A DNA stretch of 40,021 bases from a virus (taxonomy: Duplodnaviria > Caudoviricetes), in the IMG/VR virus record IMGVR_UViG_3300032212_000055, positions 1 through 40,021 of that record. One strand, 5' to 3'. Under the pieces are notes generated by a model. It had not been told where the DNA came from. It saw only the letters and a program-made list of their open reading frames with translations, and did no database searches. Positions within the stretch are counted from its first letter, which is position 1. Each line of letters begins with the position of its first letter. Of this stretch, positions 1 to 35,164 are shown in pieces. Position numbers and translations under genes: made by a program.

Positions 1-127
1 CAGGCCATGCAACAAGGTAAGAACCCCGGTGAGGCTGTGTATAACCTGGCCAAAGCGCGTGGTTATGTCACAGGCGCTAACGCAATACCGGGCGGTGAGG
101 ATGATGATGCTAATAAGGAAACGCTCG
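1..127. repeat. Terminal direct repeat (copy 1) identical to 39895-40021; most likely circular-assembly overlap
   Basis: First 127 nt (caggccatgc...aacgctcg) match the last 127 nt exactly; 127 is a common maximum assembler k. Confidence 0.95.
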
Positions 128-3569: not shown

Positions 3570-3967
3570 TTGTTGCAACTAATATTGATGTTGTCGAAAT
3601 GCCTGACGATAAAGGCGAAATACATCGGATGATTCAACAGCAGAGCATGGGTCAAATGCCGCCTATATATGACAGCGCAGACAACCCGGTAGACCGTGAG
3701 GTGATGATAGAAACTATCCAGGGCAGACGCTTTAGAAACAGCAAAGGACTCGATATCGTATTGGGCATGAGCAATCAGGCTCAAGAGGCCCTGGGCATCT
3801 GGTTTGATACTGTCGAGAACCAAGCAAATATCATTGATGATTTACATAATTCCAATAACCGGCTAATGGCCGAATTGAACATGCTCAGAAAGACTTACGA
3901 TGCCTTTGAAAAAATGGGGTTTTGGTCTAGGTTACGATTCGCATTTACAAGGAAATATAAGCTATGA
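3566..3967 (+). CDS. Hypothetical protein
   Basis: 133 aa ORF with 4-nt overlaps to both neighbours. Confidence 0.7.
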   Translation: MIVATNIDVVEMPDDKGEIHRMIQQQSMGQMPPIYDSADNPVDREVMIETIQGRRFRNSKGLDIVLGMSNQAQEALGIWFDTVENQANIIDDLHNSNNRLMAELNMLRKTYDAFEKMGFWSRLRFAFTRKYKL

Positions 3968-4620: not shown

Positions 4621-5911
4621 ATTTGTTACTTCATTCTCAGAAAAAGGTTTTAAGGAATACGGTGAGCGCATGCTTGAAACCTTCTGTGAGCATAACGACT
4701 TTCCGATAGTGGTCTACTACGAAGGCAAGAAAAAGCCGACGTTTAAGCGACCACAGATTGAATACCGGGATTTATTCAAGGTGCCGGGGGCTGCTCATAC
4801 CATGAATGTGCTGTCAGGCTTCCCCGTATTCTCTGGCCTGGTGGATGCAGTGCACACTGATCGACGCTTTTATCAATACGATGCCTTTAAGTTCAGCCGC
4901 AAGATGTTTGCTCAGGCTGACGCAGCTGGCGCCCACGACGGGCTTCTGTTCTGGCTGGATGCTGATGTTATCTGTCAGGCGCCATTCGATCCTGATCGTT
5001 TGGAGGCCATGCTGGAAGGTACTTATATGTGCTATTTAGGCAGGCCGAGCTGGCATTCCTGTGCTTCATTCGTGGGCTGGGACCTGACACATGAGGTTGA
5101 TAGCGTGTTCTGGACTAACTATTTCAACCTGATTGTCAGTGGTCGCTTCCTGGTACTGAAGGAATGGCACGACTCGTTCTGGCTGGATGAGATACGCAAA
5201 GGGGCGCATTTACCAGCACGTAATGTTGCAGGCGGTCTTGATCTTGAAGATGGCCCGGTTAATGTCTTTGACCGAGTCTGGCAGGGTGTAGCTAAACACC
5301 TGAAGGGCAACATCAAGAAAGGGCCACAGCGCTATAACCAGCTGATAGATATCGTGCGCGAGAAGCAGCCCAAACACATCATTGAGATTGGCACCTGGAA
5401 CGGTAACAGAGCCGTGGAGATGCTGAATGCTTCAGACGTGGCTGAGTCTTACATCGGCTTTGATCTGTTCACTCAGGCAACCCCTGAGACCGATGAGCAT
5501 GAAAAGAATGTTAAACCTCACTTCACCATCGAAGATGTCAAAGGCTACATTCACGACTGCGTGGGTGATGAGATTGTCGTCGAGCTGCACGAGGGCAACA
5601 CGAATGAAACGCTAGCCGACTTTGTTAATGGTGAAGTGGTGGCGCATGACCTGATTTATATCGACGGTGGCCACGCTGTTGAGACTATTGAGTCTGATCT
5701 GGTCAATGCTATGCGTGTTATCGCCCCAGACGGCACCATCGTTATGGATGACTACTACGAAGGCATGCCAGAGGAAGACCTGGATAAGTGGGGCTGTAAC
5801 CGGGTACTGGAAAAACTCGGTATTGAGTACGAGGTGTTACCTGTCGCTGACCCGGTCAATGGTGGCGGTGTCACTAAAATGGTCGTGATTAATGGAGCCA
5901 GCCTCACATGA
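4607..5911 (+). CDS. Fusion of a GT-A-like sugar transferase domain and a class I SAM methyltransferase (Methyltransf_24-like)
   Basis: ATG 4607 after GGAGA; N-half DAFKFSRKMFA...WLDADV (DxD) and EWHDSF; C-half IEIGTWNG, DLIYIDGGH and VMDDY. Confidence 0.75.
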   Translation: MSKIKFVTSFSEKGFKEYGERMLETFCEHNDFPIVVYYEGKKKPTFKRPQIEYRDLFKVPGAAHTMNVLSGFPVFSGLVDAVHTDRRFYQYDAFKFSRKMFAQADAAGAHDGLLFWLDADVICQAPFDPDRLEAMLEGTYMCYLGRPSWHSCASFVGWDLTHEVDSVFWTNYFNLIVSGRFLVLKEWHDSFWLDEIRKGAHLPARNVAGGLDLEDGPVNVFDRVWQGVAKHLKGNIKKGPQRYNQLIDIVREKQPKHIIEIGTWNGNRAVEMLNASDVAESYIGFDLFTQATPETDEHEKNVKPHFTIEDVKGYIHDCVGDEIVVELHEGNTNETLADFVNGEVVAHDLIYIDGGHAVETIESDLVNAMRVIAPDGTIVMDDYYEGMPEEDLDKWGCNRVLEKLGIEYEVLPVADPVNGGGVTKMVVINGASLT

Positions 5912-6522
5912 ATGCACGCATTATTGAGAAAAACGGATTCTTTATGCCAGAAACTCGGTTCGTTAATGAAGATTTGGGTAAATGGCTGGATCAGGCTAAG
6001 ACGCTTGATTTAGCGCTGCCCTATGTTCAAAACTTTGACCATGCGCTGGATGTCGGTGCCTATATCGGGTTGTGGACTATCCGCATGGGCCAGAGTTTCG
6101 ATAAGGTTACTGCCTTTGAGCCAGTGCCTGAGAACTACACGGCCATGCAGATGAACCTGGAAGACACAGGCATTAGCGTGCACCCGGTCAATAAGGCGGT
6201 AGGCAGTCACGTAGGCACCACAGACATGAGACTGAAAGGTGCTAATCATGCCACTATCACCCCAGAAAGAGAAAGCACGCACACCTTCAAAACCACGTCG
6301 ATTGATTCCTATGGCTTTGATGATATCGGTCTGATCAAGCTGGATATCGAAGGCATGGAACGACAGGCGCTGCAGGGTGCACAGAAAACCATTAAACGAT
6401 GCTCACCGGTTATCTGCATTGAAATCAAATTCCACGAGAAAGAAATCGATGCAGACTTGCGCGAGATGGGCTATTCACAGGTATTCAAAAACAAACTAGA
6501 TGCGATTTACGCGAGGACATAG
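5908..6522 (+). CDS. FkbM-family SAM methyltransferase
   Basis: LDVGAYIG, AFEP, IKLDIEGME..AL.GA motifs. Confidence 0.85.
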   Translation: MNARIIEKNGFFMPETRFVNEDLGKWLDQAKTLDLALPYVQNFDHALDVGAYIGLWTIRMGQSFDKVTAFEPVPENYTAMQMNLEDTGISVHPVNKAVGSHVGTTDMRLKGANHATITPERESTHTFKTTSIDSYGFDDIGLIKLDIEGMERQALQGAQKTIKRCSPVICIEIKFHEKEIDADLREMGYSQVFKNKLDAIYART

Positions 6523-6524
6523 CA

Positions 6525-6728
6525 ATGGATGAAACACTAGTTATCAGAACGGCATTAAATGGTTTTATAGTAGAAAACCTGGACCCTAATAATGATTATG
6601 CACAAACATCAAATAAGATGGTTTTCCAGTCTATGACTGAATTGCTGCACCATATCACTGAGTTTTACGGTTATAGAAACCCTAGCGAAATCATGAGTGA
6701 TAAGGAGGAAAAGCATGCAGCCTCTTAA
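6525..6728 (+). CDS. Hypothetical small protein (AT-rich)
   Basis: 67 aa ORF filling the gap between two transferase genes. Confidence 0.55.
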   Translation: MDETLVIRTALNGFIVENLDPNNDYAQTSNKMVFQSMTELLHHITEFYGYRNPSEIMSDKEEKHAAS

Positions 6729-7416
6729 AATCTTCATCGGGTTTGATCCCGTCGAGTCAGTGGCCTGGCATACGCTGGTGAGTTCGATCATGAGTCAGGC
6801 ATCAGTGCCGGTGTCGATTATCCCGTTAAACCTGCGTAATCTGCGCGATATCCACCACCGGGAGCGTGACCCTAAGCAGAGCAATGAGTTTACCTATATC
6901 CGCTTCCTGGTGCCGTATCTGTGCAATTATCAGGGTACAGCGCTATTCATGGACTGTGACATGCTGCTGAGGACGGACATTAAAGAACTGTTCAGCCTGG
7001 CAGACCAACAATATGCGGTCCAGGTGGTGAAGCACGACTATGAGCCTAAGCACTCGATCAAGTATCTTGGTAACGTGCAGCATTCATACCCGCGTAAGAA
7101 CTGGTCGAGCGTGGTGCTGTGGAACTGTGGACACCCTAAGAATAAGGAAATCACCCCCTATAAGGTCGATATGGCCGACCCGTCGTACCTTCACCGCTTT
7201 AACTGGCTGGATGATGACGAAATCGGAGAGTTGCCTATTGGCTGGAATTTTCTTGTTTCAGAATATGATGCAGACACCATAAATCATAATGATATCAAGA
7301 ACTTACATTTTACAACGGGCGGGCCTTACTTCAAGGAATACGAGACCGTAGACTTTGCTGCTGAATGGTTCGAAGCGTGTGAAAATATGCAAAGATGTGC
7401 TCAGCTAGACGACTAG
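6715..7416 (+). CDS. GT-A fold glycosyltransferase (GT8-like)
   Basis: RBS AAGGAGG; IFIGFD, SNEFTYIRFLVPYLC, FMDCDML (DxD), YPRKNWSS, WNFLV, LHFTTGGPYF. Confidence 0.85.
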   Translation: MQPLKIFIGFDPVESVAWHTLVSSIMSQASVPVSIIPLNLRNLRDIHHRERDPKQSNEFTYIRFLVPYLCNYQGTALFMDCDMLLRTDIKELFSLADQQYAVQVVKHDYEPKHSIKYLGNVQHSYPRKNWSSVVLWNCGHPKNKEITPYKVDMADPSYLHRFNWLDDDEIGELPIGWNFLVSEYDADTINHNDIKNLHFTTGGPYFKEYETVDFAAEWFEACENMQRCAQLDD

Positions 7417-16347: not shown

Positions 16348-17159
16348 TGAATGACGATTACTTATCTATGATGGGCAGCATGCAGGGCATGACCCCTGAA
16401 ATGATGGAAAAAATCAAAGAGCAGATGATGAAACGGGCGCTGTTATCCGGTGCCTCGTCTTATCTGGGTGCTCGTGGTCGTGGCGTCGATCCTAAATTCG
16501 CTATTGGCCAGGGTGTCGCTAGTGGCATGCAGGGCTATGACAGCACTATGCAGCAAGCCCTACAGATGCAGATGCAGAATAAGCGCTACACGGACCAGCA
16601 AAATCGTTATAAGGCCCAGACTGATCGTCAGGCGATGCTCGATAAACGCGCTGCGCAGGACCGTAAGGACCGGCTGGACTATCAAACTAAAATGATGGAT
16701 ATGCAGCAGAAGCGTCTCAACATGCAGCAGGGCAAGTACAACCTCGACAGACAGCAGAATGAGGATGCGATGCAGTCTATGCGTACCGGTATCACGGGTG
16801 GCTTTGAAGAAGGTCCGCTCACCCCAGATCAAGACATGATGATGGGGCTGGCTCAATCTGGTAACCCCGGTCTTGCGATGCGCATGTTACGCCCTGACCT
16901 GTTCAAATCAGGCAGCGGCATAGATTACGGTTCGCTATTGCAGCCAGGCGGTGAGCATACCCCTACACAGCCAACAGAGCCGCCACCAGAGCCTGATGAC
17001 GAAGAGGAATCAAGACTCGCTGAGCGTAAAGCACGCCAGCAGCGGGCAAACTCAGCCATTACAAAGAGCCTGATGAAGAAAAAAGCCATGGAGTTTTTAC
17101 GCGGCAACCCGCTCGATCCTTTCTCAACACCTAACCGGTTCACGATTACAGGTCAGTAA
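16347..17159 (+). CDS. Putative internal virion (ejection) protein
   Basis: ATG overlaps the previous stop; M/Q-rich coiled coil. Confidence 0.65.
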   Translation: MNDDYLSMMGSMQGMTPEMMEKIKEQMMKRALLSGASSYLGARGRGVDPKFAIGQGVASGMQGYDSTMQQALQMQMQNKRYTDQQNRYKAQTDRQAMLDKRAAQDRKDRLDYQTKMMDMQQKRLNMQQGKYNLDRQQNEDAMQSMRTGITGGFEEGPLTPDQDMMMGLAQSGNPGLAMRMLRPDLFKSGSGIDYGSLLQPGGEHTPTQPTEPPPEPDDEEESRLAERKARQQRANSAITKSLMKKKAMEFLRGNPLDPFSTPNRFTITGQ

Positions 17160-20014
17160 TGAGATATGCCGACTATGCCAATGCCTACAAAGAGCTTTAC
17201 CCGGACGCTGACAAAGACGAAATAAGCGAAGGTTACAAGCTGGCAAACGAAGACGTATCGCCTATGGCCTTAACCGGCAAAGGGCTGCAGGCCGGTTATC
17301 ATAATATGCTGGGGTCCTTTGGTTCCCTGGGTGAAATGGTCGGACTTGATACTGGCGACTTTGCTCAAGAGCAATACAAACAAGCTGAACAATTCCAACT
17401 CCCTGAACATCTACGCGGTTCAATCGTTGATAATCCTGACCTACTATCGAGCCCTCAATGGTGGGGGCATTCTCTGGGTCAAATAGCACCTAGCCTGGCA
17501 ACCTCATTGGTTCCCGGTGGCGTTGTCGCTAAAGGCGCGAGTATGCTGCCTAAATTAGCCCCGTATGCGGCGGCTTTGGGTTCGGGTACATCAGCATTCA
17601 CCGGTGGTGCCATCGAGGCAGGTGGTTTCTATAACGAGACAAAAGACCCTGCCTTATCCACGCTGTATGGCGCGGGTGTTGCGGGTATGTCCTATCTCCC
17701 ATTCTCAGCCATGTTAGGTGGCGGCAAGTTCAAATCATTGCCAGGGCGCATGCTAGCCGCTGGTGGTGGTGAAGCCGTACAGGAATGGGCAGAAGAGCCC
17801 TACGGTGCCATGCTCAAGGGTGAGGACATCATGCAGGCGGCTAAAGAGGGTGTGAACGTCATGCCAGCCTCATTTGTTGCCGGTATGTTAGGCGCTGGCG
17901 GTGTGAAAGCTACCGGTAAAGCCATCAAAGCCACGCAGAAATCCTTTAAAGAAGCGGCTGACTATTACCAGGAAACCGGTACTCTGCCCACAGGCATGAT
18001 GGTCGCGGGCGTGAAAGCTGGTACAGCTGATATGACCACGCTGGAAGAGGCGCAGAAACAGGTCGAGTCCGGTAAGGAAATGAACGAGGTATTCAAGGAT
18101 ACCGGCTGGTATCTGGGACCTGATGGCGAATGGCGTTTCGAGATCAATGATCAAGAGGCTGAAGTCTATCAACACGTCTTTAACCAGATCAATGCGGGCA
18201 TTGTCGATACCTCTGAGGGTATCCCGCTAGGCCAAATATTAGAGCATGAGAAACTGTTTAACGCCTATCCTGAACTGTCTGGGTACGAGGTCTTTGTCGA
18301 GTCTGACAAGGCTGCTGGCGGCTCATTCAATCCTGAAACAAAACAAATCAATATTTACAGTAAAGGCCGGGCTAAAAAAGACCAGTTTAAATCAACGCTG
18401 CTGCACGAAATCCAGCACGGCATCCAGACTGTTGAGAACTTTGCACGGGGCGGTAGCTCGGCAGAATTTAAAAACCAAGTGCGGAAAGAGGTGAATCAGG
18501 CTGACGAAGTTATCTCTAAATTAAATCTCGAAATGCACAAAAACGTGCAGGCTGCTGACAAAATCAAAGCCGACAGATCGGCTGCCTGGAGTGACCCGGA
18601 AAAGGTAAAACTCTACGATGAAATGCTGGATAATCTCAGTAAACGCTATCGACAGCTTATGGATCGGCGCAGCGAATTTATAGAAACAGCGCAGCAGGAC
18701 GTGTACGAAGAGCCATTTAAAAGATATCAAAACCTTGCCGGTGAAATCGAAGCCCGTGACACTGAGGCTCGTATGAACCTCACCGATGAACAGCGACGCA
18801 CCACCGAGCCTCAGCTGCTCAAAGATGCTGATAAGGCGATTATTAAACGTCAGGCATTTAAAGAAGCTGAATCACGCACAGGCGACAGTAATTTTGCAAA
18901 CTGGTTTGGTGATTCTAAAGTGGTTGATGAGGCAGGGGCGCCACAAATCATGTATCACGGCACCACGCACGACTTTGACACCTTCTCGCCAGAGAAAGGC
19001 AACCCGGAAAATGATTTCGGCGTCGGTTATTACTTCACCAATACGCCAGAAGATGTATCAGAGAACTATGCTGGCGAAGGCCCTGATTTAACGTCTCGCA
19101 TTCAGCGTCATGCCGAATTACTGCATAACGAGTTCTATGACCAGCCAGATGCGCCGATGTGGGACAGGGTCGATGAGCTTCTCGGTACAAGAGACATGAC
19201 GACGGTCTCATCAGAAGACTATGACACCGCTCTTGAGCAAATAGCGAGAGAGGAGCTATCTGGGGGTCAGCCCAACGTCATGCCTGTTTATGTCAGCCTG
19301 AAAAACCCGGCCATACTTGGTGGTCAGAACGAGACCATTATCGAGGGTAATGAATACACCGAAGATGGCGACATCAATGAAAGCGAAGACTTTGAAAATC
19401 TTTATGAGGCCATTCAGGACGCAGCCAATCTGTTTGACGATACCGACGCGCAGACGCTCTGGGAAGACGTGTCTATGGCTATCGCAGAGGGCGAGGATAT
19501 CTCACTAGCCGATGTGGTCAGCGCGATAAAAGAATCAGAGGGCGCTATGTATGCAGCCGACCCAGCGGGCGACCTGGCGTCTGGTGAGCTTATAAGAAAG
19601 GTCCTAGAATATATGGGCTACGACGGCATTATCGACAACACGGTTAACGAGAAATTCGGCACTGGTCGAGTAATGGGTCAAAGTATGGCGGGCGTTGATT
19701 ACGACACCCAGCACGTTATTGCTTTCAAACCCGAACAAATCAAATCAGCCATCGGTAATAAAGGCACCTTCGACCCCAATAACCCGAATATCATGGAGTC
19801 GCGTGAGGTTCCACGTGGAACCGACGGCATCGAGTCCCGCAATGGCGACCTGCTGTATAAAAACGTCCCTCTCAAATCATTACAGATAGACCGTATCGCC
19901 ATCGATGAGAACGGTCAGCAGTCTGTCGTTAAAGAACAGGCTGATATCGCACTCAAAGAGATTGACGATCACATTGAGACCGTCAGGAAGGTGATAGAGT
20001 GCCAAAATTCATAG
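17159..20014 (+). CDS. Polyvalent ejection protein: Gly/Ala-rich hydrophobic N-region, LPD23-like/zincin metallopeptidase and ADP-ribosyltransferase-like (ART-PolyVal) domains
   Basis: TGWYLGPDGEWRFEI; LLHEIQHGIQ (HExxH) and Y..LAGEIEAR; F.NWFGDSKVVD..G.P..MYHGT, G.YFT, GYDGII, AFKPEQIKSAIGN.GTFD. Confidence 0.8.
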   Translation: MRYADYANAYKELYPDADKDEISEGYKLANEDVSPMALTGKGLQAGYHNMLGSFGSLGEMVGLDTGDFAQEQYKQAEQFQLPEHLRGSIVDNPDLLSSPQWWGHSLGQIAPSLATSLVPGGVVAKGASMLPKLAPYAAALGSGTSAFTGGAIEAGGFYNETKDPALSTLYGAGVAGMSYLPFSAMLGGGKFKSLPGRMLAAGGGEAVQEWAEEPYGAMLKGEDIMQAAKEGVNVMPASFVAGMLGAGGVKATGKAIKATQKSFKEAADYYQETGTLPTGMMVAGVKAGTADMTTLEEAQKQVESGKEMNEVFKDTGWYLGPDGEWRFEINDQEAEVYQHVFNQINAGIVDTSEGIPLGQILEHEKLFNAYPELSGYEVFVESDKAAGGSFNPETKQINIYSKGRAKKDQFKSTLLHEIQHGIQTVENFARGGSSAEFKNQVRKEVNQADEVISKLNLEMHKNVQAADKIKADRSAAWSDPEKVKLYDEMLDNLSKRYRQLMDRRSEFIETAQQDVYEEPFKRYQNLAGEIEARDTEARMNLTDEQRRTTEPQLLKDADKAIIKRQAFKEAESRTGDSNFANWFGDSKVVDEAGAPQIMYHGTTHDFDTFSPEKGNPENDFGVGYYFTNTPEDVSENYAGEGPDLTSRIQRHAELLHNEFYDQPDAPMWDRVDELLGTRDMTTVSSEDYDTALEQIAREELSGGQPNVMPVYVSLKNPAILGGQNETIIEGNEYTEDGDINESEDFENLYEAIQDAANLFDDTDAQTLWEDVSMAIAEGEDISLADVVSAIKESEGAMYAADPAGDLASGELIRKVLEYMGYDGIIDNTVNEKFGTGRVMGQSMAGVDYDTQHVIAFKPEQIKSAIGNKGTFDPNNPNIMESREVPRGTDGIESRNGDLLYKNVPLKSLQIDRIAIDENGQQSVVKEQADIALKEIDDHIETVRKVIECQNS

Positions 20015-21847: not shown

Positions 21848-24227
21848 GTGCTTTAAAAAACTCGGTATCTCTGGCGCTGAGGCTGATCATATCAGGACTA
21901 TCGCGCAGGAATACCGTGACGATGGTATGAGCGCAGCCGACGCCAACAAAGAGGCTTTACAGGATTACCTGGAAGACCTGCATAACGAGCGTGATAACGT
22001 GGTCCAGCAGGTTCACAGCAAGCTAGGACCCCCACCACAGCCAGCCATAACTCCTGAACGGGTCGCTGAGGTCGGTGGTGAGCAGGCAGGCTTTGAAGCT
22101 AAGCGCGGTGTGATTAACTGGCAGGAAACCGAGAAGCTGGCTGAAAAATTAGGCTTAACCCCGGATCACCTCAAAAGACTGATTGATCGAGAAGCTGGCA
22201 AAACCTTTAATGTCGAAGAGCTTGAGGGCGCCGCCAGAGCGGTCGATGAAACGTACCAGCGCACGCATGAGCAGATGGTTCAATTAGCCCAGAAGATCGA
22301 GCAGGGTCGTATTACCGACGAAGAACTGGCAGCGGCGGCTGAGGCCTTTGTGCAGACAGCCAATATCGGTGCGCAGTGGACCGGGGTTTCAGGTGAGGCT
22401 GGTCGAGCCCTGCAAATCCTGAGAAAGCATCAAGACACCAAATCAAAAGCTGAGGTACTGAGAGACCTGGCAGAAGGTCAGGGCGGCATGGATATGCTCA
22501 AAGCCAAGATCATTGCTTTCTCGCGTGCTGGCAGTCCGACTGCAGCTGCCCAGGTGGCTCGTGACACCATGAAGGTGACGAAGTGGGACAAGTTCATGGA
22601 GTATTACTATTTCAGCTTGCTCTCTGGCGTACCGACCCATGTGGTGAACGTAGTTTCTACCGGGTTCCAGGGACTGGTGCAGGAAATTGATAATTTTATT
22701 GCTGCAGGTATCGGTAAAATTACCGGGTCTCAGGATCGAATCACCTTTAACGAAGTTAAGGCCCGGCTGGGTGCTGTCGGTACCGGCGCAAACCTGGGCA
22801 TACGAGAGGCGGTGCGCGTCTTCAAAGATTTTGAGGGTGAAGGTTTCGAAGAGTTCGGACCCACGAAAATAGATTACCCACAGAAACGGGCGATCAAAGG
22901 CACGAAGGGCAAGGTGTTCCGCTTCCCCATGCGCATGCTCTCGACAGAGGACACATTCTGGAAGGCGATGCTCTACAACATGGGTATAGCGCAGTTTGCT
23001 GAGGTCGAGGCCAAGCGTACCGGTAAACCGGCGCAGTTCTTTATCGATAACCCCACCGACATGATGAAAGAGCAGGCCTGGAAACAGGCCAAGCAAGGTA
23101 CTTTCACCGAAGAGGCGGGCGATATCGGTAAGGCTATCAAGCAGCTTCGAAAAAATGTGCCGATATTTAATCTGGTTTTTCCGTTTGTGCAGACCCCTGG
23201 CAACATTCTTAAGGTAGCATTAAAGCATTCGTTTATGGCGCCGATATTCAAAGATGTCCGGGCAGATTTTGAAGCCGGTGGGCGTCGTCGTGATTTGGCG
23301 CTGGCTAAAATTGGTGTCGGTTCTGCGATTGGCTTAACCGGGTTTGCATTAGCAGCCGCCGGTAAGATTGTCGGACAACCCCCAGAAGATGCGAATGAGC
23401 GTCGCCTGTGGTATCGACAGGGCAAGCAGCCGAACTCTATCAAAGTAGGTGATCAGTGGGTCTCATTCAGCCGTATTGAGCCGCTGGGCATGCTGTTAGG
23501 TATCTTTGCTGATGCTCATCAGTTTGCAGATCGATTCACTGTCGATGAGGCTGGTGAGATGTGGTCTATGGTCATGGGTTCGATTGCTTCGAATCTGACC
23601 AGTAAAACCTACCTGCGCGGCCTGACCGATGTCATTAACGTCATTCAAGAGCCTGAGCGCTACGGTGAGCGCTATATCCATAACTTCCTATCTACCCTGG
23701 CAGTTCCTGTCGGTGTGTCGTACATGGCGAAAGCCTACGACGATAAACTCAGACAGGCTGAGACCATTGTCGATGCTGTGAAGCGTCGCGTCCCTGGTTT
23801 ATCTGAAACACTGCCAGAGCGGCTAGATATTTTCGGTGATACCGTCAAATCCGAAGGCACCCCGGTTTATCGTTTCTTTAGCCCGGCCTATTTGAAAACA
23901 TCGCGCAATGATCAGGTTGCTAATGAGTTGCTGGCCTATGATGTTTCGTTCCCGGCTATCGGTAAAAGTTTCCGAGGTGTTGAGCTGACCCCTGAGCAGC
24001 GTAATTCCCTGGTAGAACTGACCGGTAAGCCGGCCTATCAGATTCTACAGAAAGTCATTCAGTCATCGGGCTATCAACAGCTGCCCGGTATTTTGAAACA
24101 GCGCGTGCTTGAGAAAGTCATTCGTGATGTCAGGGCTGATGCCAGAGAATACTGGGTGCACCAATACCCGGATTTAATGCGGGCAATTCATAACCTAAAA
24201 CTTCAAAAATACGGGGCGGTATCATGA
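21834..24227 (+). CDS. Large internal virion/ejection protein (LPD38-like C-terminus)
   Basis: 797 aa; SLLSG.PTH.VN, PFVQTP.NI, W...G.QP.S..GD.W.S.SRIEP.G, KTYL.GL, LP.R.D.FG motifs. Confidence 0.75.
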   Translation: MNLTKCFKKLGISGAEADHIRTIAQEYRDDGMSAADANKEALQDYLEDLHNERDNVVQQVHSKLGPPPQPAITPERVAEVGGEQAGFEAKRGVINWQETEKLAEKLGLTPDHLKRLIDREAGKTFNVEELEGAARAVDETYQRTHEQMVQLAQKIEQGRITDEELAAAAEAFVQTANIGAQWTGVSGEAGRALQILRKHQDTKSKAEVLRDLAEGQGGMDMLKAKIIAFSRAGSPTAAAQVARDTMKVTKWDKFMEYYYFSLLSGVPTHVVNVVSTGFQGLVQEIDNFIAAGIGKITGSQDRITFNEVKARLGAVGTGANLGIREAVRVFKDFEGEGFEEFGPTKIDYPQKRAIKGTKGKVFRFPMRMLSTEDTFWKAMLYNMGIAQFAEVEAKRTGKPAQFFIDNPTDMMKEQAWKQAKQGTFTEEAGDIGKAIKQLRKNVPIFNLVFPFVQTPGNILKVALKHSFMAPIFKDVRADFEAGGRRRDLALAKIGVGSAIGLTGFALAAAGKIVGQPPEDANERRLWYRQGKQPNSIKVGDQWVSFSRIEPLGMLLGIFADAHQFADRFTVDEAGEMWSMVMGSIASNLTSKTYLRGLTDVINVIQEPERYGERYIHNFLSTLAVPVGVSYMAKAYDDKLRQAETIVDAVKRRVPGLSETLPERLDIFGDTVKSEGTPVYRFFSPAYLKTSRNDQVANELLAYDVSFPAIGKSFRGVELTPEQRNSLVELTGKPAYQILQKVIQSSGYQQLPGILKQRVLEKVIRDVRADAREYWVHQYPDLMRAIHNLKLQKYGAVS

Positions 24228-24499
24228 GTGATGACGGCAATATTCCAGTTAAAGATAAATTAGCAGAGAACGGTATTAAGTGGGGCAATATCATGACAGC
24301 CATCATTATTGGCCTGATGTCCTGGGTCGCTTTCAACATCAACCACATTAAGGACTTAGTGGCAGACGCACTAAAAAATATTGCTATCATCAAGGTCGAA
24401 AACGGACACACGAGAGAAGACGTGAGAGACCTAAAGAGCTGGGCGAAAGAGCACGAAGAGGCGCATAAGGAAATGATTTCATATAAAGAAAAAAAATAG
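24224..24499 (+). CDS. Single-TM plus coiled-coil protein; holin-like candidate
   Basis: Hydrophobic IMTAIIIGLMSWVAF followed by a charged coiled coil; last gene of the late operon. Confidence 0.45.
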   Translation: MSDDGNIPVKDKLAENGIKWGNIMTAIIIGLMSWVAFNINHIKDLVADALKNIAIIKVENGHTREDVRDLKSWAKEHEEAHKEMISYKEKK

Positions 24500-24623
24500 C
24501 CTCTCCCATTTAAGGAAATAAACCAAGGTTATGAGGTAGGCCGCTAGGTAGATAATAACGACTAGTTTCTGGCAGTCGGTCACACCTCACCTATTAATTA
24601 ATAGCCTGGTATCTGGCTAGGGG

Positions 24624-24833
24624 TTAATCATCACTATTTTTTGTTCCTATATGCCAATCATGAAAGTCGCAATTATCTGCCGATGTTAAATAGCCAGCCT
24701 CGCAGTTTCCCTGTATTTCTCCACATGGCGCGAGGTCATCGTATTTGCAAGCGCATTCTCCTGCCTGAAATAATCCGTCATACCCGTTATCTTTTAAATA
24801 ATTGCTCACGATTACAATTACATCTATACTCAT
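24624..24833 (-). CDS. Hypothetical Cys-rich protein
   Basis: 69 aa; YL..NGYDGL....ECAC..DDL.PC motif; RBS upstream. Confidence 0.7.
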   Translation of the reverse strand: MSIDVIVIVSNYLKDNGYDGLFQAGECACKYDDLAPCGEIQGNCEAGYLTSADNCDFHDWHIGTKNSDD

Positions 24834-24860
24834 ATCATCATTCCTTTCCGCTATGCGGGG

Positions 24861-25055
24861 TTAGTCTTTACTTCTAATCTGTTTCAGTATTTCATAATAG
24901 CATTTAAAACAGCAATCAAATGACCCGCCATCACCGGGGCCGACTGCGTGGCCAGCATAATCTAAACCGTCAGAAGTCATTTTAATTTTGCAATTACTTT
25001 TATCGTTTGTTATCTCTTTTCCGCAACTATCACAATAATAGGTAACTACTGACTG
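24861..25055 (-). pseudogene. Zn-finger-like ORF remnant lacking a start codon
   Basis: Open frame QSVVTYYCDSCGKEI...DCCFKCYYEILKQIRSKD* is bounded upstream by an in-frame TGA; first ATG (24980) lies after the first CxxC. Confidence 0.4.
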
Positions 25056-25059
25056 TCAA
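25032..25059 (-). promoter_or_regulatory. Putative leftward promoter
   Basis: Minus strand TTGACA-N16-TATTGT. Confidence 0.45.
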
Positions 25060-25163
25060 CTATTTTGAATTAAAAATCCCCCTCGGCTATTAGGGTTTGG
25101 GGATATGGGGTGCCGAGAGGGTGACAAAACCGGTCATTAGGGTAACCGGCTAAAGCAAGAGAA

Positions 25164-25472
25164 CTAATTATAAAACTTTTGTATTCGCTTAGGTAACTTT
25201 TCTTTTTTCCGTCTGCCACCCAGGGGGATTAACAGATCACCGTTTTCGAGATCAATCAGCACATTCATGACACGAAAAAAAGCTTTCACATGCGGGTTTT
25301 TCACATTGTTCGAGCCGCTTTCTTTCATCAGGTAGATAATCCACTCTTTCGGGACCTCAGCCTTAACAGCGATAAAAGGCCAGTTGCCCTTGTAGTCCTG
25401 CAGGCGTTTTTTGGTCCAGGCGAATAAATCCATTTTCTTGTAGAGCTTTTTATGGGGTTTCGTTTCAATCAT
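25164..25472 (-). CDS. Cro/CI-like HTH transcriptional regulator
   Basis: KGNWPFIAVKAEVP..WI......NP.V..F..V pattern of XRE-type HTH; divergent from the early operon; no peptidase domain. Confidence 0.55.
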   Translation of the reverse strand: MIETKPHKKLYKKMDLFAWTKKRLQDYKGNWPFIAVKAEVPKEWIIYLMKESGSNNVKNPHVKAFFRVMNVLIDLENGDLLIPLGGRRKKEKLPKRIQKFYN

Positions 25473-25543
25473 GGTTTTATCTAATATCGTGAATGTAACC
25501 TGATACTAATCAATAAATAGTGACTTAACAATATATTTATCAT

Positions 25544-25575
25544 AAAAAAGCCCCTAATCTTTCGAAAAGGGGCTT
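25544..25575 (-). terminator. Leftward intrinsic terminator
   Basis: AAGCCCCT/AGGGGCTT inverted repeat with a flanking A-run on + (U-run on -). Confidence 0.65.
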
Positions 25576-25602
25576 GACCACAAATAACAACAAGCGTATT
25601 TT
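25574..25602 (+). promoter_or_regulatory. Putative rightward early promoter
   Basis: TTGACC-N17-TATTTT. Confidence 0.5.
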
Positions 25603-25608
25603 ATTTGC

Positions 25609-25965
25609 ATCGGCACTGGTACTGACCATACCAAATTGCTGAACAGTTAAAGACAGGTAACGATTCAACACGGCCTAACGCCATTATAAGTTAAATCAAA
25701 ATTCTTGCAAAACTGTTTCGCTGCCGGTCCGAAAGCAGATGCGGTATATCTGTGCGGGCGGTAAGTTAGGGAAGAAAAAAACCCTAAATTCGAGGACACG
25801 CACTCGCATACGCCCCCAATACAGGACCAGGACACTTGGGACCCCCTCGCTATGGGATACGCACCTGGCATAGGAAGCTGTACACAAGGATATAGTGAAT
25901 AGTTTAAGCGAATAGCTAGTAAGAAATTTTTATTTTCTTCGTTGTTCGTGTTCGTCTACAAAAAA
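25609..25965 (+). ncRNA. Candidate long structured leader/pre-primer RNA or origin region
   Basis: No convincing ORF; stems at 25611-25641, 25713-25738, 25736-25752, 25766-25787, 25791-25806 and 25827-25868. Confidence 0.4.
25683..25710 (-). promoter_or_regulatory. Putative leftward (antisense) promoter
   Basis: Minus strand TTGCAA-N16-TATAAT (perfect -10). Confidence 0.6.
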
Positions 25966-25975
25966 GGAGATAGAT

Positions 25976-26299
25976 ATGGGAGTTAAACATTATTACGCAG
26001 TAAAGCGAGGACACAAATTAGGTATTTTTGAGTCCTGGGAAGAGTGCCAAGAAGCTGTTGAGGGTTATTCTGGTGCTGTTTATAAAGGTTTCAAATGGCG
26101 TGAGGATGCCGTGGCATTTCTGGCTAAAAAGATGCCTAACTGGGCTGGTCGCCATAAAAAACCAGTTAAGCCTAAAGCCACCAACAATGATGGTAAATTC
26201 AAATATGCCAGCATGAGGCACGGTAAAGTCTATAAAACAACCTATGCAACAGACCCCAACTTTGAACCATACAGCGGTGATTTGCCGCCGTGGAATTAA
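25976..26299 (+). CDS. Stand-alone RNase H1 N-terminal hybrid-binding (caulimovirus viroplasmin-like) domain protein
   Basis: YYAVKRG...GIF.SWEEC...V.GYSGA.YKGF....A..FL; no RNase H catalytic domain; basic tail ending PPWN; RBS AGGAG. Confidence 0.85.
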   Translation: MGVKHYYAVKRGHKLGIFESWEECQEAVEGYSGAVYKGFKWREDAVAFLAKKMPNWAGRHKKPVKPKATNNDGKFKYASMRHGKVYKTTYATDPNFEPYSGDLPPWN

Positions 26300-26319
26300 C
26301 TTAAATTGAGGATAAAGAG

Positions 26320-26541
26320 ATGGCAAAAGAGCTGAGAAAAGTTGTTTTATATAAATATGAAAGAGTGAAATTTTCTAATCGTTATGAAAAAGTGCCTGAT
26401 GGTCATGGCTTGTTTCATGGCTTTGGTGTTGATTACGAAGAACTAGAAAACGGTGTCGGAAATTACACCACGGCTATTGTTGAGATACCGTCAGGTGAAA
26501 TTAAAAACGTGCCTGTTGAGCTGGTGATATTTAATAATTAA
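26320..26541 (+). CDS. Conserved phage hypothetical protein
   Basis: G.FH.FG.DYEE...G.GNYT.AIVE...G.I motif; RBS GAGG. Confidence 0.75.
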   Translation: MAKELRKVVLYKYERVKFSNRYEKVPDGHGLFHGFGVDYEELENGVGNYTTAIVEIPSGEIKNVPVELVIFNN

Positions 26542-26558
26542 TTTCTTAGGGATCAACT

Positions 26559-27116
26559 ATGACCAAACAATCTGATATCGAAGAATGGTTTAATAAAACA
26601 TTCTGGCCCTCATATCCTCGTGAGTTGTGCCGTATGGGTAAATTAGGCAGTAAGGGTAAAGCCATGCAGTCTATGCTGAAAATTAACCCGGACGCTGACG
26701 AGAGAGCGCGTATTCTGGCCAATATGAAAGCCATGGTTCGTTATGACCTGGAATATCAGCGAAAGACCGGGGAAAAGCCGACATACTGGCGTCACTGTGT
26801 TACCTGGTTGAATCAGCGCGGTTATGATGACGAGATCGGGTCCCATGCTGACATTGAGAAAGAGAAAGCTGTTAGAGAGTTACCTAAATGCTCTACTGAT
26901 GGCTGCACAGAGACAGTACACGGCCTCAGGTTCAGCCTATGCCCCTCGTGTATCCATAAACTCAACAAACCACACTATGACCAACTTAAAGATAACCTGC
27001 ACTCAATGGGGCTGCGTAAATCTAAAGACGAAACCATGCTGCAGTTCAATAATCGCTGTCGTGCCAAATATCGTGAATTAGTCGCCTCTGGTCAATTAAC
27101 AAAAAAAATACCTTAA
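26559..27116 (+). CDS. Replication-initiator C-terminal-like domain plus Zn finger (no N-terminal HTH)
   Basis: F..TFW..YPR.....KGKA and H..TWLNQR.YDDE motifs of phage initiator C-domains; C-x4-C...C-x2-C. Confidence 0.6.
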   Translation: MTKQSDIEEWFNKTFWPSYPRELCRMGKLGSKGKAMQSMLKINPDADERARILANMKAMVRYDLEYQRKTGEKPTYWRHCVTWLNQRGYDDEIGSHADIEKEKAVRELPKCSTDGCTETVHGLRFSLCPSCIHKLNKPHYDQLKDNLHSMGLRKSKDETMLQFNNRCRAKYRELVASGQLTKKIP

Positions 27117-27121
27117 AGCTA

Positions 27122-27149
27122 TTGACTATTAACTAGCTATCATTATTAT
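27122..27149 (+). promoter_or_regulatory. Putative promoter
   Basis: TTGACT-N16-TATTAT in an intergenic gap. Confidence 0.55.
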
Positions 27150-27185
27150 AGGTAGTGAGTGTTAACTATTTTGAGGGATATGATC

Positions 27186-27455
27186 ATGAGAGACCCAGCA
27201 GAACAAGCTGACATCGAGCGTGATGTCGAAGAGCAGAAACGCACTGAGCATAACGACGCTTTACGTGCTGTCGCTTTAGAGTCGATGAACGACAAGCAAA
27301 CCTTTGTCGAGGTCTTCTCTGATCTGATGGCCGGTGATGACGAGTTCGTCGATATGGTGAACGAAGAGCTATTTAAAAAACTCTCATCAAACGATCTGTC
27401 TGAAATCCGCGACAAAGTGGTGACGCACTATGTCGAATACTGGTTGCATGGGTGA
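27186..27455 (+). CDS. Hypothetical acidic protein
   Basis: RBS GAGGG upstream of the ATG. Confidence 0.7.
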   Translation: MRDPAEQADIERDVEEQKRTEHNDALRAVALESMNDKQTFVEVFSDLMAGDDEFVDMVNEELFKKLSSNDLSEIRDKVVTHYVEYWLHG

Positions 27456-27458
27456 TTT

Positions 27459-27674
27459 ATGAAAATTAAAAACAAATTGAGTCAAAATCGCAGGGATTTC
27501 ACAGCTATCTATGAGTGTGAGCACTGTGGAAATGAAGAAAAGTCGAGCGGGTATGATGATGCCTACTTTCATCAAAACGTTATACCCAAAATGAAATGCT
27601 CGAAGTGTGGCAAATCTGCCGGTGAAGATTACGAGCCGATGGCAACCAGATACCCAGAAGGCATGCAGGTTTAA
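27459..27674 (+). CDS. Small Zn-ribbon protein
   Basis: RRDF.A.YECEHCG...GYDD..FH..VIP.MKC..CG. Confidence 0.75.
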   Translation: MKIKNKLSQNRRDFTAIYECEHCGNEEKSSGYDDAYFHQNVIPKMKCSKCGKSAGEDYEPMATRYPEGMQV

Positions 27675-27676
27675 TC

Positions 27677-28090
27677 ATGAGCCATTCGCCCATCATTATC
27701 CATAATCCCTACCAGAAACAGGCCGCTAGAAATGTGATTGATCAGCTGCCTGAAGATGGCTCGATGATGGTTAAAATCACGAAAGTTACACGCCGTCGGA
27801 CCATCGAACAAAATGCTCTGCTGCATAAGTGGATAGGCATTATCGCTGAACATGTGGGCTACACCCCAAAAGAAATGAAGGACGCGCTCAAGTTCGAACT
27901 GCTGCAAATGGAGCAATACAGAGACGTGAGAGGCCGAGTGCAGTACAAACTACCTGAGACCTCGAATATGTCCACAGCCGAACTATCGGCCTTTATGAAC
28001 GAGATAGAGCGCTGGGCTGCACAAATGCTCAGTATTCAATTGCCACACCCTGGGGATCGTATCGATGAGCAAATCAACCAAAGAAGCTGA
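27677..28090 (+). CDS. ninB: NinB-family recombination accessory protein
   Basis: RT.EQNALLH.W...IA and TS.MS..E.S.F...IE.WAA motifs. Confidence 0.75.
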   Translation: MSHSPIIIHNPYQKQAARNVIDQLPEDGSMMVKITKVTRRRTIEQNALLHKWIGIIAEHVGYTPKEMKDALKFELLQMEQYRDVRGRVQYKLPETSNMSTAELSAFMNEIERWAAQMLSIQLPHPGDRIDEQINQRS

Positions 28091-28196
28091 GCGCCAGTCG
28101 AACCGGGATAAGTTCCCAGAGATTGCTAAATTTGTTGATGAGTGCCGTAAGGTTTTCGGTAATGTGAAAGTGATTAAATTAGAGGTGAAACGATGA
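28065..28196 (+). CDS. Small hypothetical protein (43 aa)
   Basis: MSKSTKEAERQSNRDKFPEIAKFVDECRKVFG...; bridges the neighbours with overlaps. Confidence 0.55.
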   Translation: MSKSTKEAERQSNRDKFPEIAKFVDECRKVFGNVKVIKLEVKR

Positions 28197-28426
28197 AAGG
28201 TCGCACCATGACTGATGCCCAGAAAGATGAGGCACTGAAATCGAGAGAGAGCGCCCCTATCCTGGCGCGAAAGTTTGGGGTGTCATCGAATCAGATTTAC
28301 CGCTGGCGGAATGCAAATGGTTATAAGCCTGCGACCAATAAAGGCCGCAAGATTAACCCGGTATGCAACAACAGAGAGCCCAGTGACGCATTAGAGAAAT
28401 TTATTCGAGGAGGTTTCGGTGTCTGA
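28193..28426 (+). CDS. Small HTH DNA-binding protein
   Basis: LARKFGVSSNQIYRWR helix-turn-helix. Confidence 0.65.
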   Translation: MKGRTMTDAQKDEALKSRESAPILARKFGVSSNQIYRWRNANGYKPATNKGRKINPVCNNREPSDALEKFIRGGFGV

Positions 28427-28676
28427 TTATCACGAGATTACGGCTTATCTTCGAAATGCTGACGACCTGGAACTCAAGGTTAGTTTCGAATACGAACCCT
28501 ATCAGCCTGCCTGTCATGTGCCTGGGCTATTACAGCCGGAATCACCGCCTGATGTGAATATCTATCAGATCACACTAGACGATTTTTTCGAGGTATCGGC
28601 GGTATTAAATCCGCATGCCGTCGAGGATATCCGTAAGCAATGTTTTGAATACATGGAGAAAGTTAATGATTATTAA
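28419..28676 (+). CDS. Hypothetical protein
   Basis: 85 aa, GTG start after GGAGG. Confidence 0.65.
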   Translation: MSDYHEITAYLRNADDLELKVSFEYEPYQPACHVPGLLQPESPPDVNIYQITLDDFFEVSAVLNPHAVEDIRKQCFEYMEKVNDY

Positions 28677-32825: not shown

Positions 32826-33114
32826 ATCGAACAAGGTTAGGGAGTCAGCGCGTGACGAAGCCTGCACGCTGAATGGCCCCAACTGTAATTATGATTCGCA
32901 GACCACGGTATTCTGTCACCTCAATGAGCAGTTTGCCGGTAAGGGTATCGGTATCAAGGCAGATGATATCGGGTTTTATGGTTGTTCAAATTGTCACAGC
33001 GATTACGATGGTGGACGACTCGAAGACAAATATTTTTATGTATTGCGCGCTGTGGTCAGGACACTGCAGCGATTAGTGGAAAAACAAATCATTACTATCA
33101 AGGGCATGAGATGA
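32803..33114 (+). CDS. DUF1364/YbcO-like Zn-binding putative nuclease
   Basis: SAR.E.CTL....C.....TTV.CH......G.G.K.DD....GCS.CH..YDG. Confidence 0.8.
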   Translation: MLKRPVIRSNKVRESARDEACTLNGPNCNYDSQTTVFCHLNEQFAGKGIGIKADDIGFYGCSNCHSDYDGGRLEDKYFYVLRAVVRTLQRLVEKQIITIKGMR

Positions 33115-34067
33115 GACATCGCATAGTATCAATGTCGGGCGGCAAGGATTCGACAGCTGTCATACTGCAGGATATTGAGCGCGGTTTAAAAGCCCGTTAT
33201 ATTTTTGCAGACACTGGCAATGAGCATGAATTGGTCTATGAGTACATGGAATATCTGCAGACTCAGCTAGGCATTCAAATTGAAACAGTAAAGGCCGATT
33301 TTACAAAAAGATTGGCTACTCGTCGCGCCAATCTCGAAAACACAGAATCATGGGTTCACAAACAATGGATACTCGCTGGCTGGGAAACTGAGGAAATCTT
33401 GGAGCTGGCTAAATTGATCATTCCTACAGGCAACCCCTTCCTTGATTTATGTATGTTAAAAGGCCGGTTTCCATCGACCAAGGCATCATTTTGCACGATT
33501 GAGCTAAAGCAAATTCCTATGAGGCAGCAGATAGTTGATCCGATACTGGATGCCTCAGAAAAAAATATCGTTATTAGTATCCAGGGTGTCAGAGCTGATG
33601 AGTCGTTAAAGCGTGCAGGACGCTCACCCTGCGGAATGATTGACGAGGGCATATACCACCAGTACCCCATATTCCAGTGGACCGCTGAGGAAGTATTCGC
33701 CATTCATAAAAGACATTTCATTAAACCGAACCCGCTTTATAAAATGGGTTGTGGCCGTGTTGGCTGTATGCCTTGCATTAATGTTAGAAAAGACGAATTA
33801 ATGAATATTTCGCATCGATTCCCAGAGCATATCGAGCGCATTGCAGAGTGGGAAAGGATTGTCGCCAGGGTATCGAAGTGCAATGCTTCGACATTTCTTC
33901 CAGCCATTGGCATTGACACTGAAAACGCCATGGAAAAAGGCAATATTTACCAGCATGTTGAGTGGTCAAAAACCTCGCGCGGCGGCAAACAAATGGATTT
34001 AGAGCGCATGCTTGAACCACCGGCCTGCTCTAGTGTTTACGGACTATGTGACAAAGGAGATTTATGA
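33111..34067 (+). CDS. PAPS-reductase-family (PP-loop) protein, phage type
   Basis: SMSGGKDS, FADTGNEH, KGRFPS....FCT.ELK, GVRADES..RA, NPLY..G..RVGCMPC, CSSVYGLC. Confidence 0.85.
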   Translation: MRHRIVSMSGGKDSTAVILQDIERGLKARYIFADTGNEHELVYEYMEYLQTQLGIQIETVKADFTKRLATRRANLENTESWVHKQWILAGWETEEILELAKLIIPTGNPFLDLCMLKGRFPSTKASFCTIELKQIPMRQQIVDPILDASEKNIVISIQGVRADESLKRAGRSPCGMIDEGIYHQYPIFQWTAEEVFAIHKRHFIKPNPLYKMGCGRVGCMPCINVRKDELMNISHRFPEHIERIAEWERIVARVSKCNASTFLPAIGIDTENAMEKGNIYQHVEWSKTSRGGKQMDLERMLEPPACSSVYGLCDKGDL

Positions 34068-34477
34068 AAACAATATTACTCTCAGGCGGCTTCGACCCTC
34101 TCCATATCGGCCATGTACGCATGATTAAGGCTGCGTCACGTCGCTGTGAGGTGATTATCGCCTTAAATTCCGATGACTGGCTGATGCGCAAGAAAGGCTA
34201 TGTATTCATGCCTTTTGATGAGCGTAAGGAAATACTCGAAAGCCTGGAAGCGGTATCAGGGGTCACTCACGTCGATGACAGTGACGAAACCGTCTGTGAA
34301 GCTATTAACAGAATACGCCCTGATTGTTTTGGTAACGGTGGTGACCGGCTACCCGGTAACACGCCAGAACACGAACTTTGTGAAAAACTGAGCATTCACC
34401 TCGTCTATGGTTTAGGGGGTGAGAAAATCCAGTCAAGTAGCGAACTTGTTGATAATGCAGAGGTATATCATGGATAA
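34064..34477 (+). CDS. HIGH-motif nucleotidyltransferase (TagD / RfaE-domain-II-like)
   Basis: SGGFDPLHIGH, LNSDDWL.RKKG, F.NGGDR...NTPE, K.QSSS. Confidence 0.9.
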   Translation: MKTILLSGGFDPLHIGHVRMIKAASRRCEVIIALNSDDWLMRKKGYVFMPFDERKEILESLEAVSGVTHVDDSDETVCEAINRIRPDCFGNGGDRLPGNTPEHELCEKLSIHLVYGLGGEKIQSSSELVDNAEVYHG

Positions 34478-34754
34478 ATTACTGCCAATTGTGCCGGGGT
34501 GTATGGCGATATATTTGCCAGAGGGTAAGGCCTACAAGGTAATAGATAGGATCGTACCCGGTGAGTATTATGCAAGGAATGAGAACACGGGTCAGTTAAT
34601 GGAGCGACTGGGCGAGGGTTACTGGCGCATCGACGCAAAACCAATATTTGAGGATGCTGAATGGACTGCCGTACATGAAAAGTATTTAATGCGCATCGAC
34701 GGCTATGACGAATCTCAAGACCTTGTCGAAAAAGGTAAGGAGTTAAGCAAATGA
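34470..34754 (+). CDS. Hypothetical protein
   Basis: PGC.A...E..LMRIDG motif; RBS GAGG. Confidence 0.65.
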   Translation: MDKLLPIVPGCMAIYLPEGKAYKVIDRIVPGEYYARNENTGQLMERLGEGYWRIDAKPIFEDAEWTAVHEKYLMRIDGYDESQDLVEKGKELSK

Positions 34755-35164
34755 ATCAGCCTGTCTTAAAAAAGATTACCGAGAACCCCTGGACCCCCAG
34801 ACCCTGGGGTATCATGCGAATCATTCACGAGGACGAGCGCTACTGGGTGAAAGTTATTCGTATCGCACCATGCCAGCAGATATCCCTACAAACACACGCT
34901 AACCGTGACGAAGTCTGGACCATTACCCAGGGCGAAGGGCTTGCCACACTGATCGCCTTTCCCAAAACATTGAAAAATGGTAACAAGATGCGGGTTAATA
35001 CCGGCCATACGGTATCAATTCCCAAAGGGGTCAAGCATCGCATCAAAAACCTGTCAGCAACCGAAACACTGGAATTTATCGAAGTCGCCACCGGGCGCTG
35101 TGATGAGGCAGACATTGTGCGCTATGCCGATGACTACGACAGGCCTGTTTTACCAGAGCCATAA
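34751..35164 (+). CDS. Cupin, mannose-6-phosphate isomerase type II C-terminal-like
   Basis: RPWG, VK.I.I.P...SLQ.H..R.E.W, IP.G.KHRI.N, EV..G...E.DIVR..DDY.R. Confidence 0.85.
   Translation: MNQPVLKKITENPWTPRPWGIMRIIHEDERYWVKVIRIAPCQQISLQTHANRDEVWTITQGEGLATLIAFPKTLKNGNKMRVNTGHTVSIPKGVKHRIKNLSATETLEFIEVATGRCDEADIVRYADDYDRPVLPEP

Follow-up and report, generated by a model that had tools for sequence, protein, structure and literature searches.

Replication of ColE1 depends on a pre-primer, RNA II, that folds through its α, β, and γ segments, and on steps carried out by RNase H and Pol I; it is inhibited by an antisense RNA, RNA I. In hok/sok, a long toxin RNA is combined with a convergent short RNA. 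The P4 CI, P1 C4, and N15 CA immunity RNAs, for their part, come from the strand that also encodes their targets. The Marine RNA-based (MRB) origin of Vibrionaceae plasmids, as described in PMC3035462, is Rep-less, spans ~500 bp, and encodes two complementary RNAs; RNA-mediated initiation was attributed there, in 2010, to ColE1 and MRB plasmids alone. According to the same source, pES213 shares only a ~110-bp RNA I core with MRB, the rest of its RNA II being non-homologous. VBR1 plasmids are described in PMC12753305 as protein-initiated and thus offer no relevant parallel.

The DNA analyzed here, a viral record of 40,021 nucleotides referred to as the window, had been proposed in an initial annotation to carry a ColE1-like, antisense-controlled, RNA-primed replication module. 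The RNA I/RNA II-like layout on which that proposal was built survives those of its refuting conditions that were checked by sequence comparison: it is conserved in homologues with replaced stems, and the six leaders examined contain no conserved or frameshifted HTH ORF. Judged by this recurrence, the predicted antisense RNA switch is real, and it is uncatalogued. A literature search that covered few subscription papers found neither this element nor a tailed phage with a ColE1-like origin described.

Genomic setting of the element

The window is a 40-kb circular podovirus-like phage genome, circularly permuted, with a 127-nt terminal overlap (direct terminal repeats). Its gene set includes a P22-like portal, an SU10-type adaptor, RecT, NinB, and nucleases. 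The claimed lack of a helicase, primase, or polymerase holds for the 58 window ORFs scanned, among which an integrase is absent too, and the region 24900-27200 is without an iteron array, as also claimed. TPR, glycosyltransferase (GT29, GT8), and methyltransferase genes lie amid structural genes at 2145-7416 and 32982-35164, along with PAPS reductase, cytidylyltransferase, and cupin genes; judging by their predicted products, these likely serve virion glycosylation or DNA modification. A Polyvalent-type virion protein with ART-PolyVal and LPD23 domains is encoded at 17159-20014.

To the left of the element, a small, weakly HTH-like protein encoded on the minus strand at 25164..25472 (profile match with a weak E value of 0.009) is a candidate repressor. 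Promoter and repeat scans place a leftward promoter with operator-like inverted half-sites at 25027..25072 (minus strand) and a rightward promoter, at which that operator-like sequence is repeated, at 27113..27178 (plus strand). The repeat, ~45 bp in length, overlaps both of these outward promoters around the block that holds the HTH-like gene, the RNA, and the initiator gene. The strict half-site pattern occurs three times genome-wide, always at this block (25030-27180), and a related half-site at 25516 lies inside a possible promoter of the HTH-like gene. Outward promoters that share an operator-like repeat, with an HTH-like gene between them, would be in keeping with a plasmid-like state that is repressed while the RNA module remains active. 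A G+C-rich, hairpin-like sequence behind the leftward HTH-like gene (25070-25160) is possibly a second RNA structure.

A microbial-mat DNA run, possibly the source of the window, is the only sequencing run listed as containing it, and no RNA run was listed; one contig of the mat run spans 24988-27400 of the window with zero differences. Further contigs of that run cover the RNA core (25632-25677) and the left promoter (24840-25050) at deeper coverage than the window's contig, so related phages in the run share these pieces.

Structure and distribution of the predicted RNA switch

The element was located in eight uncultured phage loci, of which seven, the window included, have a complete copy and one has a partial copy. 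Scanning metagenomes with the alignment of the hybrid-binding protein returned 14 loci: the window, L014, L015, L016, and ten distant ones without the element. L014, L015, and L016 have hardly any other gene in common with the window and retain a ~100-nt core (80-84% identity in L014 and L015), a hybrid-binding gene, and a headless initiator, which here belongs to another subfamily; L016 begins inside the core and is the partial copy. The second initiator subfamily led to two of two IMG/VR loci, L115 and L116, which carry a diverged element and no hybrid-binding gene. RNA-pattern scans yielded L174 (one of 120 loci, with 24 of 64 parts scanned) and L260 (among 25 loci, one of them on L174's contig and 23 due to chance). 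Core identity among the seven complete copies ranges from 56 to 90%. Because L014 and L016 carry the same assembly prefix as the window record and the cores form three groups, the copies amount to about three lineages, not seven.

Rfam searches on the window and its relatives gave only chance matches for the element, as did blastn against INPHARED and PLSDB. In GTDB, the RNA pattern had 0 matches, and the initiator alignment had a single weak match of 24 residues that was taken as chance; single-protein scans of IMG/VR returned nothing. A first RNA pattern (8/8 loci false) and a degenerate initiator pattern (11/11 loci false) were discarded.

All seven complete copies have a sense promoter, a convergent promoter, a minus-strand terminator, and a predicted switch whose helix sequences are replaced between subfamilies. 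The rightward sense promoter (TTGACC-17-TATTTT, 25574..25602, plus strand) lies where it was first annotated; across the seven copies, it matches the consensus at 8-10 of 12 positions and ends at the same offset, 5-7 nt ahead of an ATCRG motif. The convergent antisense promoter (TTGCAA-16-TATAAT, 25683..25710, minus strand) was likewise found at its annotated site and keeps its offset in every complete copy, with a minus-strand TATAAT 69-74 nt past the ATCRG motif and a −35 box that matches 3-4 of 6 positions at a spacing of 16-18 nt. In L174 and L260, the TATAAT hexamer and part of the β strand were elements of the search pattern, so these two copies provide no independent test of them. Promoter matches alone are at chance level (9 found versus 8.8 expected in 24000-28500); the antisense promoter is the sole TT[GT][ACG]A.-16..18-TATAAT site in the window genome.

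The leftward terminator is present as well, at 25542..25575 on the minus strand, as an intrinsic hairpin with a U tract that a simple terminator scanner did not pick up. It recurs in 7/7 complete copies with several different stem sequences, is more stable on the minus than on the plus strand in each of them, and overlaps the sense promoter in the relatives. The predicted antisense RNA is 135 nt long in the window (25542..25676, minus strand), close to the ~130 nt first proposed, and 107-118 nt in the relatives (107-135 nt over the seven copies). Its fold, computed on 138 nt of the minus strand, has a z score of −4.7 in the window, with 0/200 shuffles equally stable, and z scores of −1.8 to −5.1 across the copies. 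In all five copies that can be aligned, the first antisense stem persists: one U.G pair is invariant, one change is compensatory, and the loop varies. The fold also retains G.U pairs that are valid on the antisense strand only. This RNA lies ~300-440 nt from the first downstream start codon.

Folding was done as per-copy ensembles with shuffled controls because MAFFT-based consensus folds misregister the replaced stems. A multi-stem transcript of ~360 nt had been proposed for the sense strand; conserved structure is confined to its first ~125-150 nt, whereas the whole 368 nt has a z score of −0.95 with 21/100 shuffles as stable. Predicted folds with shuffled-downstream controls delimit a conserved 5′ switch domain at 25608..25732 (plus strand). 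The first stem-loop of the annotation is borne out here as an early hairpin (25610-25642, plus strand), which has a probability of 0.67-0.97 in the 60-nt sense RNA of the seven copies. In the 150-nt sense RNA, two long-range helices are predicted on the plus strand: (i) P1 (25609-25615 with 25722-25728), with a probability of 0.51-0.96 versus control means of 0.04-0.23 over the seven copies, and (ii) P2 (25638-25648 with 25711-25721), with 9.7-17.9 expected pairs over the same copies. At most 1/40 shuffles reach the P1 or P2 values in each of the seven copies, and the P2 strands of L115 and L116 differ in sequence from those of the other copies. Taken as isolated duplexes, P2 reaches p < 0.02 in 4/6 copies, also in L260, while P1 is weak (p < 0.05 in 1/6). 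Of six copies tested, none shows significant downstream β-γ pairing, the alternative that ColE1 would predict (z scores of +0.5 to −1.7).

The distal non-coding leader (25733..25975, plus strand) is the candidate hybrid-forming or primer part of the sense RNA. Its sequence is not conserved in the other subfamilies and is alignable within L015/L115/L116 and L116/L174 only. Measured from the sense promoter to the first start codon, the leader spans 368-509 nt and is ORF-free, whichever gene comes next, and at least 200 nt of non-coding sequence past the switch (a distal part of 200-340 nt) is kept in these compact genomes. Folding of the distal leader shows no excess over shuffles (z scores of −1.7 to +0.7). 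Its G skew is 0.01 in the window versus 0.15-0.24 in the other six copies; strand skew at fourfold-degenerate sites has no switch and is uninformative. Neither a conserved or frameshifted HTH ORF nor a conserved or hydrophobic ORF occurs in the six leaders examined. No conserved sense-strand intrinsic terminator (hairpin plus U tract) was found, the distal leaders of L174 and L260 being without a run of at least five T, nor was a leader peptide or coupled ribosome-binding site conserved across copies. A YATGGG sequence near the leader 3′ ends, similar to the ColE1 origin motif, was discounted; it often doubles as a ribosome-binding site and stands at a variable distance.

Protein neighbours and carrier genomes

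The first gene downstream of the leader differs among copies. In the window, it is a plus-strand ORF at 25976..26299 whose residues 6-48 match the RNase H1 hybrid-binding domain PF01693 (E value of 2e-18; 66.6 bits against a gathering score of 21) and which has no catalytic domain; hybrid binding itself is predicted. The domain assignment of the initial annotation stands; the protein further has a conserved C-terminal tail of ~50 aa that is common to seven of its eight homologues (lengths searched, 58-188 aa). The gene directly follows the leader in four of the eight loci and is absent from the other four, which removes it as a regular member of the module. L015 (4987-5338) and L115 (5001) have a near-identical leader end, followed by the hybrid-binding gene in the former and directly by the initiator in the latter, which suggests precise gain or loss of the hybrid-binding gene. 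The next window gene, at 26320..26541 on the plus strand, encodes a phage protein of phrog_11000 not found in the modules of the relatives.

The third gene (26559..27116, plus strand) encodes, by profile and model, a stand-alone protein made up of the C-terminal domain of O-type initiators, a zinc finger with two invariant Cys, and a two-helix tail. Its earlier designation as an initiator without the HTH is supported by the match of residues 2-98 to the C-terminal part of replication-initiator PHROGs 270, 9474, and 9327. There are 185 relatives at E ≤ 0.001 among 50%-identity representatives; among the 150 listed, 113 (query included) form the stand-alone set and share the initiator domain, zinc finger, and helical tail, with lengths of ~150-210 aa and a match starting near the N-terminus, full-length initiators and fragments being left out. 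Of 80 IMG/VR loci, most have an ordinary full-length initiator whose C-terminal part is matched by the family profile. Since it belongs to a stand-alone family with a zinc finger and tail, the protein is, on these alignments, intact rather than a broken initiator. Its structural model is confident (pLDDT of 95.6). The model has no match among PDB folds (best Z of 4.8), and a viral fold library returned only rows at E > 0.001, mostly initiator-type; these searches speak neither for nor against a DnaT- or DnaD-like fold.

The second headless subfamily (L014-L016, L115, and L116) is related to that of the window with a profile probability of 91%, is stand-alone in 25/27 matches, and is similar to the C-terminal end of the ST64B and phiP27 replication protein O. 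An initiator domain lies downstream, within 1.1 kb, in six of the eight loci, while neither an initiator nor a hybrid-binding gene is present in the fetched flanks of L174 and L260. The way in which the loci were found inflates both protein-link counts, as six of the eight comprise the window and others recovered via those proteins. The proposal that RNA substitutes for the missing DNA-binding domain of the initiator is not upheld: with L174 and L260 lacking an initiator in their fetched flanks, the element is not simply a stand-in for the missing HTH. At L064, a member of the window's zinc-finger initiator family follows ~300 non-coding bases (3648-3945) that are unrelated to the element. Another headless initiator type is preceded, ~430-480 nt upstream, by the Rfam Betaproteobacteria-1 RNA at L093 (3442-3567), L096, and L099 (both 3391-3516).

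Three carrier genomes of the relatives illustrate the variety of backbones. G006, which carries one of the two copies recovered by RNA pattern, is a siphovirus (29 kb, 75% complete) whose early region, bounded by tail genes and an endolysin, consists of a cro-like gene, the element, an SSB, a Ref-like nuclease, and small unknown genes; no initiator, helicase, primase, polymerase, or integrase is recognisable there in the 75% of the genome at hand. A 205-aa protein encoded upstream of its element (L274, 3239-3856) gives a weak Arm-DNA-binding match, gives none to an integrase catalytic domain, and could be an initiator. Together with the appearance of the promoters, the SSB may point to a gammaproteobacterial host. 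In G001 (42.9 kb, 82% complete), the element stands ahead of Erf and an exonuclease, and no initiator was found, one early operon being cut by the contig end. G002 (59% complete) has a headless initiator and no other recognisable replication gene. With podo- and siphovirus carriers and differing next genes, the element moves between backbones and needs no fixed downstream partner.

Possible functions and relation to known systems

The favoured reading, held with moderate confidence, is that the element is a ColE1/MRB-like RNA-primed replication origin under antisense control. Folding predicts that the nascent sense RNA would form the 5′ hairpin first and then refold into P1 and P2. By its complementarity to the 5′ strand of each helix, the antisense RNA would block this refolding. 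By analogy with ColE1, the refolded sense RNA would invade the template downstream, host RNase H and Pol I would convert it into a primer, and host restart proteins would then load the helicase. The variable loop may confer phage-specific incompatibility. Two optional helpers are envisaged: the hybrid-binding protein might act as an R-loop guard or duplex binder and the headless initiator as a helicase adaptor. Primer formation is favoured because (i) the switch is far from any start codon, (ii) no sense terminator or leader peptide is conserved, (iii) the long ORF-free tail is always kept, (iv) one carrier, G006, shows no other initiation system, and (v) a hybrid-binding domain and an initiator adaptor domain occur as optional neighbours. 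The window's own lack of helicase, primase, and polymerase genes also counts toward an origin. Counted against it are the distal leader, which is neither folded above shuffles nor conserved between subfamilies, lacks significant similarity to the ColE1 origin, and has no G skew in the window, the non-significant β-γ pairing, the weak isolated P1, the inflated protein links, the incompleteness of G001 and G006, and the Arm-DNA-binding protein of the latter; the benefit of copy-number control for a phage without a demonstrated plasmid state is doubtful as well.

A quite possible, if less probable, explanation is that the leader, gated by the antisense RNA, regulates the early genes behind it, whether through termination by Rho, antitermination, decay by RNase III, or translational control over a distance, and that replication starts elsewhere, for instance in a recombination-dependent manner via RecT or Erf plus NinB. 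It stays close behind the origin, given that conservation is limited to the 5′ switch and that control by Rho or by decay leaves no trace in the sequence. In every copy, the element heads a gene cluster, and six of the copies lie inside early operons that read in one direction; a search for a terminator separating the initiator-like gene from the early genes after it found none. The window, G001, and G002 have annealing proteins and NinB. PMC5415839 describes attenuation by antisense RNA (pT181, pIP501) as well as translational control (IncFII). Against such control stand the missing conserved intrinsic terminator, leader peptide, or coupled ribosome-binding site, the inconstant first downstream gene, the at least 200 nt of non-coding sequence retained past the switch in compact genomes, and the G006 early region without any other origin system.

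That the product is the sense 5′ domain or the short RNA itself, either as a processed structured RNA or as a trans-acting small RNA directed at the host or co-infecting phages, with the convergent layout only setting their ratio, is unlikely. No promoter of the window genome comes closer to consensus than the antisense promoter, the core is common to several contigs of the mat run, and loops vary while stems stay, all of which would agree with it; sense refolding, however, needs sequence past the antisense promoter, which points to a cis switch. The convergent short RNA and long-range 5′ pairing are also what a type I toxin-antitoxin locus would have, with a small toxin ORF in the long RNA in the manner of hok/sok, but the six leaders hold no conserved or hydrophobic ORF, making this highly improbable. 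Even less credence is given to chance motifs in an ordinary intergenic spacer or to a decayed initiator head: promoter counts are at chance level and the whole leader has an unremarkable z score, yet the geometry is common to all seven complete copies, their stems being replaced, and the headless proteins form intact families.

A broader claim is put forward only tentatively: in a group of podo- and siphoviruses, replication would start at an RNA-primed origin that is mobile and Rep-less, has its copy number controlled by antisense RNA, and encodes incompatibility in its loop. It would be an independent RNA-run replicon, the third after ColE1 and MRB, and headless initiators and stand-alone hybrid-binding proteins would act there as adaptors that bring the host helicase to the R-loop. 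If true, a phage RNA-primed origin would account for replication in many uncultured phages that lack initiator, helicase, or primase genes, assign a function to the large headless-initiator families, explain the many headless genes in phage genomes, and add a new small replicon. Should the leader instead control early genes, the element would still be an uncatalogued predicted antisense switch of defined structure.

O-type initiators (phrog_270; replication protein O of ST64B and phiP27) share the C-terminal domain of the headless proteins; unlike in a lambda O-type module, the initiator-like protein of the window lacks the N-terminal HTH and no iteron array occurs in 24900-27200, and the stand-alone families have added C-terminal parts. 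The Betaproteobacteria-1 RNA (RF02932) is similar as an uncharacterised phage RNA upstream of headless initiators (3/10 short-initiator loci, from one lineage, and 0/18 full-length loci), but its sequence is unrelated and does not match the element. The P4/N15-like immunity alternative raised at the outset is disfavoured by the convergent layout, which differs from that of the P4, P1, and N15 RNAs, and by the lack of an Rfam match; antisense-gated expression as such is still a serious rival. As in pT181, pIP501, IncFII, P22 Sar, and lambda OOP, a cis-encoded antisense RNA, predicted in the present case, opposes a leader upstream of replication-related genes (PMC5415839). In contrast to antisense attenuators and translational controls, the target here is ~300-440 nt from the first start codon and the downstream gene varies, and, in contrast to pT181, there is no antisense-induced intrinsic terminator, as no sense hairpin with a U tract is conserved.

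The likeness to ColE1, as described in PMC3035462, PMC5415839, and PMC8683028, comprises convergent promoters, a predicted antisense RNA of ~110 nt that has its terminator near the sense start and whose sequence complements the 5′ end of a long non-coding RNA, and predicted refolding of that long RNA. The differences are a leader of 368-509 nt versus ~550 nt, an unconserved distal part, optional hybrid-binding and initiator C-terminal proteins with no Rop detected, residence in tailed phages, and primer formation that would follow only by inference from ColE1. Similarity to the ColE1 RNA II-oriV region is not significant (short chance-level blastn matches with a best E value of 0.04, and none with nhmmer), and blastn against PLSDB, a comparison that did not contain the type plasmid pB1067, gave no real match to MRB-type plasmids. 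The MRB RNA I, as given in PMC3035462, has 68 nt and two stem-loops, whereas the predicted antisense RNA here has 107-135 nt and two stem-loops plus a terminator, thus three. The same text provides in MRB and pES213 a precedent for the unconserved tail, namely a conserved ~110-bp core with a non-homologous remainder. The element would therefore be a member neither of ColE1, for want of homology, nor of MRB, owing to its different RNA size and fold; if it is an origin, it would nevertheless work like them.
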